Below, one piece after another: positions 35,236 to 43,444 of a stretch of DNA of 64,000 bases. Both the position numbers and the translations under genes were made by a program. Origin of the DNA: an uncultured Alphaproteobacteria bacterium. Lineage in GTDB: Bacteria; Pseudomonadota; Alphaproteobacteria; Rs-D84. The notes below the pieces were generated by a model, which saw only the letters and a program-made list of their open reading frames with translations, was not told the origin of the DNA and did not search any database. Position 1 is the first letter of the stretch. Each line of letters starts with the position of its first letter. The DNA lies in the NCBI GenBank assembly GCA_947646585.1, contig CANSHD010000001.1, positions 313,210 through 377,209 of the forward strand, in the 5' to 3' direction.

Positions 35236-35553
35236 GTGCGGGCTCTCAAGTTGAGATGAAACGAAAAAAGAAATCTCAACCTCTAGGAAATTCGGCGGTT
35301 CGCAGGTAATTCTGAGGGAATCGCAACATTGTGAATAAAAGCAGCTCATCAAAAATTCAAGAAGGGATGTGCAGACAGTTGAATTTGGAAATATCCAAAC
35401 TTTGACTAAGTCAAATGTGCATATCCTAGACAGGTAGTAGGTTTACATATTAAACCTCGTTAAAAACTTGTCTTGCGAATAAATATATGTAAAGACGAAC
35501 TGATATTATGTCAGTGTTGTTTATGCACAGGACTTAAACCACAAGTTTTTTAG

Positions 35554-37054
<1,501 letters not shown>

Positions 37055-37138
37055 ATAGAGAATACCGTTTCCACGAAAACGGTCAAATCCAAAGCGACTG
37101 TCTGAACATCTCTTTTTGAAAATGGGTATAATTCTGCT

Positions 37139-37215
37139 GGGTCAGTAGTTCAGTTGGTTAGAATGCCGCTCTGATACAGCGGAGGTCGAAGATTCGAGTT
37201 CTTCCTGACCCACCA
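37139..37215 (+). tRNA. tRNA-Ile (anticodon GAT) in the 16S-23S spacer.
   Basis: Acceptor GGGTCAG/CTGACCC. Anticodon stem CCGCT/AGCGG, loop CTGATAC. T-loop TTCGAGT. CCA encoded. Confidence 0.9.
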
Positions 37216-37521
37216 CTTAAATTGATGAGGTTGGAATCAAAAACAAATACTTGTTTTTGATTCCAGATGTTCTGATGAATATCTTCGGAATCTGCTTTTA
37301 TTAGCAATCATTGTAAATCGGTTTTTAATGTCGTAAATCAAACTTTATGGAAACATGACTTTTGATTTATTGAACATCGTAATCTCAAAAATCTTTCTAA
37401 ATAGAGTAATCACGAAAGTGATAATTCAATTAGAGAAGCAAGAATCAACTTAAATGCTTAAAAAACTCATTAAGTTCTTTTGATTGTGTTTGAAGACTTT
37501 CTCTTCAAGCATAAGATAAAA

Positions 37522-40258
<2,737 letters not shown>

Positions 40259-40354
40259 TTTTTATCTTATCGTTTGACTTATGTCAGACGATTGCTTGAA
40301 GAGAACGTTGACATTGATTCTTGAATCATGTATTATGATGTTCGCTGGATTTAT

Positions 40355-40470
40355 TCTGGTGATTATTGAGCGGGAGCCACCCTCTGTTCCATTCCGAACC
40401 AGACAGGGAAACCCCGTATCGCCGATGGTACTTTGGCTTAAGCCACGGAAGAGTAGGTCGTCGCCAGAGT
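40355..40470 (+). rRNA. rrf: 5S ribosomal RNA.
   Basis: '…CCATTCCGAACCAGACAGG…CGCCGATGGTACTTTGGCTTAAGCCACGGAAGAGTAGGTCGTCGCCAGA'. Terminal helix TCTGGTGA/TCGCCAGA. Confidence 0.85.
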
Positions 40471-40504
40471 AAATCCAGTTTCCGATATTAAAAACCGATT
40501 CCAC

Positions 40505-40532
40505 CGCCCATTGGGCGGTTTTTTGTTTTAGG
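40505..40532 (+). terminator. rrn operon terminator.
   Basis: 'accgccc-attg-ggcggt' followed by T6. Confidence 0.75.
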
Positions 40533-40562
40533 ATTTTCAAAATTTATGATATAATGTAAATC

Positions 40563-41122
40563 ATGGTAAAAAGTCTTTATATTATCGCGGGTCCAAATGG
40601 TTCTGGTAAAACCACATTGGCAAAAGAGCTGGTAAAGGAAGATAATATTGCATTCTTAAACGCAGATGAAATAGCAAAGAAAAAAGGAGATGCAATCGGC
40701 ATTGCTGCCGGTCGTTTGCTATTGGATAAGCTAGATTCTTTATTGGAGGAAGGTAAATCTATTATTTGGGAATCTACGGTTTCAGGTAATTTTCATACAA
40801 AAATCATAGAACGTGCGAAAAAGTCAAAATATGAAATAGTATTTATATCTTTTTAGATTCTGTTGAGCAAAATATTATGCGTATAGAACAGCGGGTCGCA
40901 TTGGGTGGGCATACCGTTCCTGAATGTGATGTGCGTCGCAGATATAATCGCAGTTTAAATAACTTTAAAGATATCATTCCAAATGTTTCTCATTGGGAAC
41001 TGTATTATAATGGTGGCAATAATTATATTTTAATAGCTCGTGGCAAGGGAGATTTTATTGACATTATTAATGAACAAGTCTATCATAATTTTGTAAAAAG
41101 GCTAAAAAATGACAAAAAGTGA
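40563..41122 (+). pseudogene. Zeta-toxin / AAA-family P-loop ATPase gene disrupted by a 1-nt frameshift in a T5 homopolymer at 40850–40854.
   Basis: ORF1 'MVKSLYIIAGPNGSGKTTLAKEL…KYEIVFISF*'. With one extra T the frame continues as 'FLDSVEQNIMRIEQRVALGGHTVPECDVRRRYNRSLNNF…', which is the typical family C-terminus. The region is AT-rich. Confidence 0.65.
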
Positions 41123-41252
41123 TTATGAATTATCTGCAAAAATATCACGTTTGGCTAATCGCGGCGCATACAAGGCGCGTGAAAAAGCGCGCCGAGCGGG
41201 CGTGCCTGTTGCATATGCGTTTGATGGAAAAATATTTGAGGTTTGTCTGTAA
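41109..41252 (+). CDS. Small ORF of 47 aa, overlapping the ATPase 3' end and followed by a strong terminator. Possible cognate partner of the ATPase.
   Basis: 'MTKSDYELSAKISRLANRGAYKAREKARRAGVPVAYAFDGKIFEVCL'. Ends directly at the hairpin 'acgcccaatgggcgg' followed by T6. Confidence 0.35.
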   Translation: MTKSDYELSAKISRLANRGAYKAREKARRAGVPVAYAFDGKIFEVCL

Positions 41253-41286
41253 TAAAAAAACGCCCAATGGGCGGTTTTTTAATTTG
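41253..41286 (+). terminator. Rho-independent terminator.
   Basis: 'aaaaaaacgcccaatgggcggttttttaattt'. Confidence 0.75.
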
Positions 41287-41305
41287 TCGCGTGGAGTGAT
41301 TGATA

Positions 41306-41541
41306 TGTTAAAACAGATATTAAATTTCGAAAATGGTTTCGGTGATGTTGTCATATTGAAAGAGACCGCTGGCTTTACCGTTAAATATTCGCTTAAGAAA
41401 TGCCCGGGCGTATATCATTGCCGTGTAAATAATACGGTGGATTATGACAAGGCCGTAAAGCACTTTAACCGCTATCGTGGCATATTAAAGCGTCGCGAGA
41501 CCATCAGCCGCACGCGGGGGAAACAATCGTGCCGGATATAA
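41306..41541 (+). CDS. Hypothetical small protein, 78 aa.
   Basis: ATG-initiated ORF 'MLKQILNFENGFGDVVILKETAGFTVKYSLKKCPGVYHCRVNN…' in an AT-rich context. Confidence 0.3.
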
Positions 41542-41768
41542 TCACAAACGTAGATATGCTGTACACCACCCCCATGGGAACGATGCGGATACGTCGTAAT
41601 CTTGGTATAGATGTCGACAACGTGGTTGAATATTGCCGTGCGCGCATACTGTCGCCGGAATCCGCAATAGAACGCCGTGGTAAAAATTGGTATATATTGT
41701 TGCCGGATTGCACGATTACGGTTAATGCGTCGTCTTGCACAATCATTACGGCGCACAAAGTCCGTTGA
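41529..41768 (+). CDS. DUF3781-like small protein.
   Basis: '…LYTTPMGTMRIRRNLGIDVDNVVEYC…RRGKNWYILLPDCTITVNASSCTIITAHK' resembles the DUF3781 signature (GKNWY…ITVNAxSYTIITAH). Confidence 0.45.
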   Translation: MPDIITNVDMLYTTPMGTMRIRRNLGIDVDNVVEYCRARILSPESAIERRGKNWYILLPDCTITVNASSCTIITAHKVR

Positions 41769-41847
41769 CCAATTATTTTATTGCAATCTATGTAATCTGT
41801 AATACACTTTGGGGCCAGAGAGGGAATGCAACAAAAGGTAAGTTGTT

Positions 41848-42258
41848 ATGAAAAAGATATTCCTTGTCTCTGTTATTTCCATTTTTTGTGCGGGCGTCGC
41901 GTTGGCGTCGGATATGCTGCCGGCGGGCGGTTATTATGAAACCGAAAGCGCCGATTGCGACATGAATGCAATGCGTGCCGAATTGGACCGTGCCACGGCC
42001 GCGCGTCGTGCGGTGATTACGGTTGTGCGCTGTGCGCCGCGTGCGACGGACCGTGATATGGCCCGGGACGCGTCCTATGACGCGGAATATGCGGCGTTTG
42101 ATGATGGTTGCACCGATTGCGCCGCCCCGATAGAGCGCGTGATAGACCGCCGCGTATATGTGGAGGAAACGGTTCAGCAGTATCGTCCGGTTCTGCACTA
42201 TGTTCCGGCCGGAACATATTCGCGCACACGCCAAATATGCAACGAATGCGATATGTAA
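41848..42258 (+). CDS. Small secreted Cys-containing hypothetical protein.
   Basis: Signal peptide 'MKKIFLVSVISIFCAGVALA'. Six Cys including a C-terminal 'CNECDM'. Confidence 0.45.
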   Translation: MKKIFLVSVISIFCAGVALASDMLPAGGYYETESADCDMNAMRAELDRATAARRAVITVVRCAPRATDRDMARDASYDAEYAAFDDGCTDCAAPIERVIDRRVYVEETVQQYRPVLHYVPAGTYSRTRQICNECDM

Positions 42259-42392
42259 AAAGTCTTGCCAAACCGGCGCAAAAGCGATAAACTTTGTATA
42301 TAAACATATGCCTAATAAAAACCACCGATAAAAGCGGTGGTTTTTAATTTATAAAAAATATTGGTTTTCTGCATTTTTTTATTCTCTCCGGT

Positions 42393-42938
42393 GTGCCTAA
42401 GGAAAACGGTCCTTTTTTTGCAGCGCTGTTTTGCGCATGTTCCGCCAACGCGGGGACAGTATGTGCCGATTGTTACAAGTGTGTTTCCGGAACCGCTGAC
42501 AATTGTTATAAATGTGAATATGATAAAAACTATTGTATGGGTATCGATGAACCGATTGTAGAATGCGCGGGAAATGCAAAGTGGGACAGCACACAACGCA
42601 AATGTGTCTGTCCCAATACTATTGCGGCGATTTGTAGTAATCCGTGGGGGTTTTTCGATAGTTCCGACAATGTGTGTGATTGTGCCCAGGTGGCGTGTAT
42701 ATCAGGAAAATATCCCGTGTCGGCCAATACATGCAAAGATTGCCCGTTGCCGGATTTCACATTGTCGTCCTGTAGCATTCAAAGCAGCGTTGATTATGCG
42801 ACGGATATGGAAATGAAAGTCGGCGGATACAACGGCTGTTATATCCCCGGGGGCTGTGTGGCAACAGACGATACCGGTACGTTCGAACTGATTGCGGACT
42901 GCAAGTACAGCACGGCGCTGGAAGTTGAGTTTAATTAA
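42393..42938 (+). CDS. Small cysteine-rich hypothetical protein of about 180 aa with 22 Cys. Start uncertain (GTG).
   Basis: 'CADCYKCVSGTADNCYKCEYDKNYC…CVCPNTIAAICSNPWGFFDSSDNVCDCAQVACISGKYPVSANTCKDCPLPDF…'. Confidence 0.4.
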   Translation: MPKENGPFFAALFCACSANAGTVCADCYKCVSGTADNCYKCEYDKNYCMGIDEPIVECAGNAKWDSTQRKCVCPNTIAAICSNPWGFFDSSDNVCDCAQVACISGKYPVSANTCKDCPLPDFTLSSCSIQSSVDYATDMEMKVGGYNGCYIPGGCVATDDTGTFELIADCKYSTALEVEFN

Positions 42939-43444
42939 ATCTGAACGCCCATAAAGTATTTTGCGGCGACGCCGATTATAAAAGAGGCCGTGGCCACACC
43001 GGCACATATCAGCAGCATTTCCGCAAAGCGTTTCATAAACGGCCGGTGTGATACGCGCCCGATGGCACAGTTAAATCCGAATATTATCAGCACCGCAATT
43101 AAACCCATCATGCCCAGTGCCCAAAATCTGTCGGGGATTACGGCAAACGGGAACAGCAGGGCCGCACTGGTCCCGACATACATAATTCCGGTGTACAGCG
43201 CCGCGTTCAGCGCCCGCGGGTTTTCGTCCGCACGCTGGGCCTGGTAATTGGCGGCGGCCATGGACATGCTGGCCGCGACGGCGGCGATTGCACCCGTCAT
43301 TATGATTATCTTTCTATCCGCGATTGCAAACGTCAGGCCCGCGATAATTCCGCTTAATTCCACCAGCGCGTCATGCATCCCCAGCACCAGCGCCCCCGTG
43401 TATTCAAAATGCTTTTTGGTCTTCATATCCATTGATTTTATCAT
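42935..43444 (-). CDS. VIT1/CCC1-family membrane protein (putative Fe/Mn transporter domain).
   Basis: 'LGMHDALVELSGIIAGLTFA…AASMSMAAANYQAQ' fits the VIT 'LGxNDGLV…SMAxGEY' pattern. Five TM segments. Confidence 0.5.
   Translation of the reverse strand: MIKSMDMKTKKHFEYTGALVLGMHDALVELSGIIAGLTFAIADRKIIIMTGAIAAVAASMSMAAANYQAQRADENPRALNAALYTGIMYVGTSAALLFPFAVIPDRFWALGMMGLIAVLIIFGFNCAIGRVSHRPFMKRFAEMLLICAGVATASFIIGVAAKYFMGVQI

Follow-up and report, generated by a model that had tools for sequence, protein, structure and literature searches.

The described systems closest to the locus reported here are the epsilon/zeta module of pSM19035 and PezAT from Streptococcus pneumoniae, two-gene toxin-antitoxin (TA) modules of plasmids and chromosomes in which the antitoxin gene lies upstream of the gene for a P-loop kinase toxin of ~250–290 amino acids (aa). 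Two other zeta-like proteins are relevant: AvrRxo1 from Xanthomonas and Acidovorax, an NAD kinase whose antitoxin gene, arc1, lies directly downstream, and PezT-Mtb of the PezT-Mtb/PezA-Mtb pair (Rv0366c-Rv0367c), a short protein with a P-loop near its N terminus, Asp36 and a conserved arginine, in which the canonical UDP-N-acetylglucosamine (UNAG) site is missing and whose annotation goes no further than "ATPase" (PMC6362051). In this report, we analyzed a 64,000-nucleotide (nt) stretch of DNA from an uncultured alphaproteobacterium of the Rs-D84 lineage (GenBank assembly GCA_947646585.1, contig CANSHD010000001.1, positions 313,210 to 377,209), hereafter the window, and focused on an AT-rich patch immediately behind its rRNA (rrn) operon. 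This patch encodes an interrupted zeta-like ATPase and, overlapping the end of that gene, an open reading frame (ORF) of 47 aa (Table 1). It is, we believe with good confidence, a self-contained, horizontally acquired zeta-type two-gene cassette, toxin first, in which the toxin has recently been inactivated and the presumed antitoxin has been retained.

The cassette has several features in common with epsilon/zeta and PezAT—the zeta P-loop kinase fold, a match to PF06414, zeta-family toxins as its top Foldseek matches, a Walker A motif followed by an Asp ~20 residues downstream, and a two-gene organization found on both plasmids and chromosomes—but it differs from these systems in size, gene order, and the nature of the second protein. 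The kinase is ~185 aa long and 13–15% identical to their toxins; the order of the genes is reversed, the partner being encoded downstream; this partner is a 47-aa helix plus β-hairpin, unlike the three-helix epsilon or PezA, which is a fusion of a helix-turn-helix (HTH) domain to epsilon; and the omega or HTH regulator is absent from the cassette. An upstream antitoxin of the epsilon/PezA kind (PF08998, or HTH_3 plus an epsilon-like domain) was looked for, and there is no ORF between T1, the intrinsic terminator of the rrn operon, and the ATPase. By its anatomy, the cassette is thus not a canonical member of either system. With AvrRxo1:Arc1, it shares the position of the partner gene directly downstream of the kinase and a G+C content below that of the host genome, and AvrRxo1 gives the best TM-score among the fold neighbors of the kinase (0.74–0.75). 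A downstream partner combined with toxin decay therefore has a precedent, because avrRxo1 is often a pseudogene through point lesions while arc1 is intact (PMC4938570). Unlike the kinase described here, AvrRxo1 is 414–421 aa long and carries a type III secretion domain, and Arc1, unlike the 47-aa partner, is an all-helical protein of ~98 aa with a KExFD...YExxYY motif. The likeness to PezT-Mtb/PezA-Mtb, compared by description, lies in a zeta-like ATPase of ~200 aa with an N-terminal P-loop and a catalytic Asp at position 36 (Asp35 here). The antitoxin PezA-Mtb is an upstream ribbon-helix-helix/ParD-like protein, unlike the downstream partner in our cassette.

The assignment of the ATPase to the zeta-toxin superfamily is based on profile and fold evidence. 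Its N-terminal ORF begins MVKSLYIIAGPNGSGKTTLAKEL and carries the Walker A motif (GPNGSGKT), Asp35, and an E70/T72 motif, while the C-terminal frame is open from 40835, with sequence typical of the family extending from a Tyr at 40844 to the TGA at 41120–41122. When the two frames are joined by adding one T, which is how the sequence-only reading that preceded this work had repaired the gene, the protein scores 34.9 bits against Pfam Zeta_toxin (PF06414; cutoff 22.3) and 35.3 bits against AAA_33 (cutoff 27), so that the placement in these families proposed by that reading is borne out. Because AAA_33 scores as well as Zeta_toxin, we keep the assignment at the level of the superfamily. There are more than 400 full-length, uninterrupted homologues of 183–189 aa, the nearest 72% identical, and PF06414 is precomputed for most of them; where they are named, it is as "AAA family ATPase," "zeta toxin family protein," or "predicted ABC-type ATPase." Among the genome-contig matches listed, the relatives are distant (52% identity or less), and metagenome contigs hold few close ones (best 62% identity). 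Relatives are also found in 420 plasmid records, for the most part under the name "zeta toxin family protein." The AlphaFold2 (AF2) model of the nearest intact homologue, with a predicted local distance difference test (pLDDT) score of 90.9, was compared with the Protein Data Bank (PDB) using Foldseek, and its top neighbors are PezT (2p5t), zeta (3q8x/1gvn), and AvrRxo1 (4z8u), with query TM-scores of 0.62–0.75 and E values of about 1e-7. The positions that are invariant in 58 homologues—GxxGxGKT, D35, E70/T72, R108, R112, and R128—are all kept in the window. From their spacing, K16 and D35 would correspond to the Walker lysine and catalytic Asp of PezT-Mtb, and spacing together with the literature suggests that D35 and the arginines are equivalent to D67, R158, and R171 in zeta (PMC6362051). 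A literature search on COG4185 returned no results.

The second component of the cassette is conserved in its position. The sequence-only reading had seen a 47-aa ORF overlapping the ATPase stop and ending at a strong terminator, and this description holds, with a stop codon 8 nt ahead of the terminator at 41261–41273. An ORF of 47–48 aa with 66–87% identity lies in the same overlapping position behind each of the close intact homologues inspected (loci L001, L002, L094–L099, L100–L102, L143, and L144). In 80 distant loci from many phyla, an ORF of 47–96 aa almost always begins at the ATPase stop or no more than a few bases away from it, the usual arrangement being a 4-nt ATGA overlap of the two genes. 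A profile of the partner, built with ~30 of the locus sequences so that the remainder are independent of it, gives a hit immediately behind the ATPase in 73 of the 80 loci and at just three further sites in a total of 7800 ORF segments; it also finds the partner after the ATPase of a Persephonella plasmid (NC_012439), with 39.5 bits. The homologues have in common an alanine-rich helix of basic character (..AL.RAA.KAR..A) and, after it, the motif G.P..vW.dGKvV. The AF2 model (pLDDT 87.5) shows a single long helix (residues 3–30) and a β-hairpin (residues 34–45). This model contains no recognizable DNA-binding fold, and searches of Pfam, NCBIfam, PDB sequences, and, with Foldseek, PDB structures yielded nothing credible. 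The PDB hits "Scone" and "Cake" were discarded as designed β-propeller repeats that match the hairpin only. At least 1466 homologues of the partner exist, labeled "hypothetical protein" where labeled at all. Judged by this conservation, the 47-aa ORF is a real gene, conserved across phyla, and the pair displays a characteristic trait of type II TA modules in being two small, co-oriented, overlapping genes that co-occur in unrelated genomes and plasmids. Incidentally, on the Escherichia coli plasmid NZ_CP075702.1 (L104, 950–1201), which carries a subfamily at 31% identity, a small gene lies upstream of the zeta-like gene and its product holds a "..EEAR...G.PIYY"-like stretch, with a profile score that is not significant; the partner domain may thus occur in either gene order.

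The expression signals suggest how the two genes might be controlled. In the window and in six independent related cassettes (L001, L002, L094, L100, L143, and L144), a TGnTATAAT element precedes the start codon of the ATPase by 6–7 nt. Such a short interval cannot accommodate a Shine-Dalgarno sequence, and a leaderless mRNA is predicted for the presumed toxin. A σ70-like promoter is embedded in the 3' end of the ATPase gene, ~22 nt ahead of the partner ATG; it recurs as TTGA[CA]A-17-TA[TC][ACG]AT at the same place in 7/7 close modules, with an AAAGG/AAGAGG Shine-Dalgarno sequence between it and the partner ATG. The promoter hexamers sit in conserved codons, where selection on the protein and on the promoter are inseparable. 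This internal promoter may serve the antitoxin alone and, if it is active, the partner would stay expressed despite the premature stop in the ATPase. In the mechanism we favor, the extended −10 promoter would give rise to a leaderless mRNA for a zeta-like P-loop kinase of 187 codons, the presumed toxin. The presumed antitoxin, the helix-plus-hairpin partner, would come next; its gene overlaps the stop codon of the kinase and is probably served by a separate promoter within the kinase gene. The terminator would follow. We infer that the kinase would be toxic, that there would be a target for it to phosphorylate, and that the partner would neutralize it. A single net deletion of 4 nt in a TA tract has inactivated the kinase gene in this species and left the partner untouched, so that a recently disarmed toxin with a retained antitoxin, and no active system, would remain.

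The nature of this deletion is another finding of our analysis, and it differs from what had been assumed. According to the sequence-only reading, the frame breaks inside a T5 run (40850–40854) and is repaired by one additional T. The premature TAG does take the final T of this run, but the sequence on either side of it shows a net loss of 4 nt instead, placed at 40844–40848. The family motif at the break is E-I-[IV]-[FL]-[VI]-Y-[VI]-F-L-D-S. The N-terminal frame reads K-Y-E-I-V-F-I up to the break, and the C-terminal frame, followed backwards (TTT TTA after ATC, TAT, and ATT), reads I-Y-I-F-L-D-S as in the family, so that the two frames share TATA at 40844–40848. The T5 run itself corresponds to the Phe-Leu codons TTT TTA, which are also present in the intact homologue L002 (GTA TTT TTA GAT), and it is intact. 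Codon alignment to the intact homologues L143, L144, L001, and L002 supports TTT ATA TAT ATC TTT TTA as the ancestral sequence. Against a family hidden Markov model (HMM) built without it, the protein repaired with TATA is gapless over 187 aa and scores 299.1 bits, compared with 285.9 bits for the repair with one T, and it keeps 28/28 invariant and 23/23 nearly invariant positions of the family, Tyr96 included. The repair with one T, which reads EIVFI-SFLDS and is one residue short, was rejected as the ancestral state because it leaves a one-residue gap, destroys Tyr96, and falls 13 bits below the alternative. The event was thus a net loss of 4 nt, most simply of two units of a (TA)4 tract. 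It is also the sole lesion in the kinase gene. The 95 stop-free codons downstream would occur with a chance probability of 0.0002 at this composition. Truncation after residue 97 falls ahead of the arginine-rich C-terminal half of the protein.

The split allele is real and, as far as sampled, apparently fixed. An exact lookup of the 47-aa protein returned 24 contigs. In six representative loci from six sequencing runs (L083–L088), the gene is split into 97 + 81 aa in every contig reaching the site, with TATATCTTTTTAGATT identical in independent assemblies from SRR34802146, SRR20792807, SRR34802066, SRR32673443, and SRR34802141; overall, 21+36 contigs carry the 97-aa product and 57 carry the 81-aa product. 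By the names given to neighboring proteins, the organism falls among uncultured "Alphaproteobacteria bacterium" MAGs. The comparison with related strains that had been proposed in the sequence-only reading therefore returned the same split form throughout, and the intact form with six Ts was not seen. No intact allele was present on the contigs sampled, and no intact protein closer than 72% was present in a collection of 5.8 billion protein clusters. A sequencing or assembly artefact, with the gene intact in the organism, is effectively excluded by these data and by the size of the missing piece, 4 nt rather than one, even if the break does adjoin a low-complexity TATAT plus T5 stretch, a context prone to indel errors on some platforms. 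Phase variation through strand slippage in the T5 run or the TA tract, which would be compatible with the short repeats at the break and with the loss of two TA units being in itself a slippage-type event, is also very improbable: one allele is found across all contigs, the run is also five Ts long in L002, where the gene is intact, and the remaining tracts, (TA)2 and T5, are too short for appreciable reversible slippage. The locus does not, then, have the features of a phase-variable one. Of the three causes of the frameshift offered by the sequence-only reading, this leaves decay, while sequencing error conflicts with the independent assemblies and phase variation with a 4-nt loss from the TA tract present as a single allele. 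We find it just as hard to believe that low levels of full-length kinase are made by programmed −1 ribosomal frameshifting on UCU UUU UAG. The tRNA-Phe could re-pair perfectly in the −1 frame with a stop codon in the A site, and the downstream frame is open with all its conserved residues kept. However, a protein made in this way would be without Tyr96, which is nearly invariant, and one of its core β-strands would be a residue too short. The RNA downstream forms no significant structure (z = −0.95), a Shine-Dalgarno-like stimulator is absent upstream, and all the homologues are uninterrupted. Between T1 and the downstream terminator T2, the sampled strains differ from the window by one coding substitution and one change private to L085. 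Because they are nearly identical over this interval, the deletion is recent, with no further decay since.

A more serious competitor, which we nevertheless consider unlikely, is that the pair is not a TA module but serves accessory metabolism, as a kinase of small molecules or polynucleotides together with a subunit that regulates it or presents its substrate. Adenylate, shikimate, and polynucleotide kinases as well as PFK-2 are among the fold neighbors of the ATPase, polynucleotide kinases are also among its PHROG and PDB sequence matches, the partner resembles no known antitoxin, and this partner is more conserved than the kinase (85–87% vs. 70–72% identity between the window and L143/L144). 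Yet the top fold matches are three zeta-family toxins and the Pfam Zeta_toxin score is above the gathering score; the pair is patchily distributed across phyla, frequently on plasmids beside stability and transfer genes; the genes overlap tightly and are low in G+C; and a kinase that is lost while its partner is kept fits the decay of a toxin (PMC4938570). Several observations weigh against our own interpretation of a decayed TA cassette and should be kept in view. The TM-scores are moderate, with generic nucleotide kinases close behind in the fold search, and a profile of the ATPase run against PDB sequences (E ≤ 0.01) retrieved no PezT or zeta chain, so that it is the Pfam HMM and the fold that link it to characterized zeta toxins. 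No similarity between the partner and epsilon, PezA, or Arc1 could be detected, and toxicity and neutralization are, for this subfamily, properties that we infer. Finally, the lack of a second lesion in the gene fits recent inactivation but would fit residual function too. On balance, the decayed zeta-type cassette remains the interpretation that we prefer. The sequence-only reading had spoken of a horizontally acquired remnant that was either TA- or abortive infection-like; the TA-like part is upheld by Pfam, the fold, and the conserved partner, while the abortive infection or defense part is not, the PADLOC matches being confined to the P-loop. These matches are short (E ≥ 2.5e-4), and an assignment to a defense system was rejected on that basis; PADLOC returned nothing for the partner or for the 78-aa ORF and DUF3781 gene that lie further downstream. 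A phage origin was rejected as well, with two weak matches among 50,697 phage records and PHROGs matches to generic ATPase/kinase families only.

The foreign origin of the cassette and the variability of its site are supported by composition and by comparison with relatives. As noted in the sequence-only reading, the DNA becomes AT-rich after the 5S terminator: in a composition scan, G+C falls to 34–38% right after T1, and it amounts to 34.4% over 40520–41260, compared with 53.1% in the window and 54% in flanking coding DNA. The relatives share a common frame, which runs from the 5S gene and T1 through a 73/78-aa gene, in some cases the DUF3781 gene, and a 136-aa gene to VIT1 on the minus strand, 3-methyladenine glycosylase, Sua5, and PagL. 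The slot after T1 is occupied by the ATPase cassette in the window and L002, by an unrelated 138-aa gene in L089, and by genes of 88 and 115 aa in L090–L093; these alternative genes are all without a Pfam match. Because its G+C content is 34.4% against 53–54% and unrelated genes occupy the same slot in relatives, the patch is supported as a compositionally foreign, horizontally acquired islet carrying a TA-like module in a variable site.

The way in which the cassette is bracketed raises the question of how it came to be there. It spans ~40526–41280 between two terminators, T1 (stem at 40503–40519, then a T run) and T2, which match at 19/20 positions. In the 64-kb window, CGCCCAWTGGGCGG occurs at T1 and T2 only, against 0.26 occurrences expected by chance, and L089, which has no cassette, carries an identical T1 behind its 5S gene. 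The trivial explanation that all terminators in the genome are alike was rejected, since other terminators in the window have different stems and the motif is found at the two flanks only. In L001, L002, L094, and L144, the cassette also lies between two copies of a terminator, which are specific to each genome, extend into flanks outside the stem, and occur at the flanks only; these repeats are 38–51 nt long with z well above 10 in the three that were scored (L001 3505–3545/4266–4308, L002 3835–3867/4607–4642, and L094 2947–2976/3705–3735). In L100, the upstream copy is absent. Among distant loci, flanking direct repeats with z ≥ 6.7 were found in 7/68 and 5/19, hence 12/87 together, a count slightly inflated because three of the 12 are related, compared with 1/160 for neighboring control genes in the same loci (Fisher p = 2e-5). 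The repeats are 18–94 nt long and about 75–95% identical, and they differ from genome to genome. The upstream copy ends 0–122 nt before the ATG (mostly 7–40 nt), and the downstream copy restarts 0–100 nt past the partner stop (mostly within 25 nt). In L122 (around 1890–1990 and 2752–2845), for example, the final 94 nt of a methylase-like ORF make up the repeat, and a degenerate copy of them lies downstream. There is thus a tendency for the cassette to be located where a transcription unit ends and to be followed by a duplicate of that 3' end. No clean empty site was found among the relatives; those without the cassette have other genes in its place, and the junctions are not homologous.

This bracketing by host-derived repeats points to an uncharacterized insertion mechanism. 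attC integron cassettes, dif-targeting IMEX, and CIME-type elements, the last of which have no integrase, have in common with our cassette a small cargo without a recombinase, direct repeats, and a variable locus; unlike in these elements, the repeats here are derived from the host (an upstream terminator or a 3' coding end), specific to each genome, 18–94 nt long, and without an attC or dif signature. A broader proposal, which we put forward only tentatively and regard as possible rather than probable, is that the zeta-like kinase and its downstream partner represent a widespread, unnamed TA family that may explain many "orphan" zeta toxins and may act as a minimal mobile cassette lacking a recombinase, which inserts at host 3' ends and duplicates an 18–94 bp target. 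If this were true, both the upstream gene and the cassette would end in the same sequence, here the rrn terminator, and TA modules would have a distinct way to spread.

The remaining genes of the region add to the picture of a changing locus. The sequence-only reading was right that two further small ORFs follow, one of them DUF3781-like. The first, of 78 aa, is a real gene that also occurs in relatives. The second overlaps it by 13 nt, and its match to PF12636 spans profile positions 2–72 of 72; its exact protein is not on record, and a literature search on DUF3781 returned one unrelated paper. In L002, the DUF3781 gene and the 73-aa gene are in swapped order. The interval 41306–41650, which takes in the 78-aa ORF and the first part of the DUF3781 gene, shows ~7% nucleotide divergence between strains, compared with <0.3% in the cassette, with seven clustered amino acid changes between strains that are otherwise nearly identical, which suggests a recombination tract or diversifying selection. 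Further downstream, the variable region contains ORFs of 136 aa (41848–42258) and 181 aa (42393–42938). Both are cysteine-rich, neither matches a Pfam or PHROG family, and the 136-aa ORF has a signal-peptide-like N terminus. As a whole, 40520–42940, lying between the rrn operon and the VIT1 gene, is a small hotspot of gene turnover. On the other side of T1, the 16S-23S spacer (37054–37517) contains tRNA-Ile(GAT) alone; neither ARAGORN nor Rfam finds a tRNA-Ala in it. In alphaproteobacteria, this spacer usually holds both Ile and Ala tRNAs.

Table 1. Features of the rrn operon, the zeta-like cassette, and the adjoining genes, in coordinates of the window
Feature	Position	Strand	Evidence and remarks
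16S rRNA	35553–37054	+	rrn operon
tRNA-Ile	37139–37215	+	rrn operon
23S rRNA	37517–40266	+	rrn operon
5S rRNA	40355–40469	+	Rfam RF00001, 73.7 bits; closes rrn operon, adjoins cassette upstream
T1, rrn intrinsic terminator, upstream repeat copy	40503–40525	+	Terminator scan; ACCGCCCATTGGGCGGT + T run
Extended −10 element TGATATAAT	40547–40555	+	7 nt before ATPase ATG
ATPase, N-terminal part	40563–40856	+	97 codons + premature TAG; ORF list, Pfam, family alignment
ATPase, C-terminal part, shifted frame	40835–41122	+	Frame translations
Remnant TA tract TATAT, inferred site of net 4-nt deletion	40844–40848	+	Overlap of N- and C-terminal frames, HMM score, codon alignment
Internal σ70-like promoter, TTGACA-17-TATCAT	41058–41086	+	Promoter scan, 11/12 matches
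Partner gene, presumed antitoxin, 47 aa	41109–41252	+	Overlaps ATPase stop by 14 nt
T2, bidirectional intrinsic terminator, downstream repeat copy	41257–41280	.	Scan, both strands; AAAACGCCCAATGGGCGG + T run
78-aa ORF	41306–41541	+	90% cluster of 28 members; in L002, L089–L093
DUF3781 gene, 79 aa, GTG start	41529–41768	+	Pfam PF12636, 94.2 bits, cutoff 27

Taken on its own, the locus would represent routine toxin decay with antitoxin retention, and the main value of the analysis is a correct annotation, in which the ATPase is a pseudogene through a 4-nt deletion and the 47-aa ORF is a gene. The novelty is modest and lies in a family of short zeta-like kinases with an unnamed helix-hairpin partner encoded downstream. 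A survey of PezT/zeta homologues published in 2023 confined its search for antitoxins to upstream neighbors, and most of the homologues came out as orphans (PMC10532202). With its at least 1466 members, the family of partners encoded downstream is a concrete candidate for the antitoxin of a large subset of these orphan zeta/PezT homologues. The enrichment of flanking repeats around the cassette, finally, provides a testable handle on how chromosomal TA modules move, a process that to our knowledge is poorly understood.

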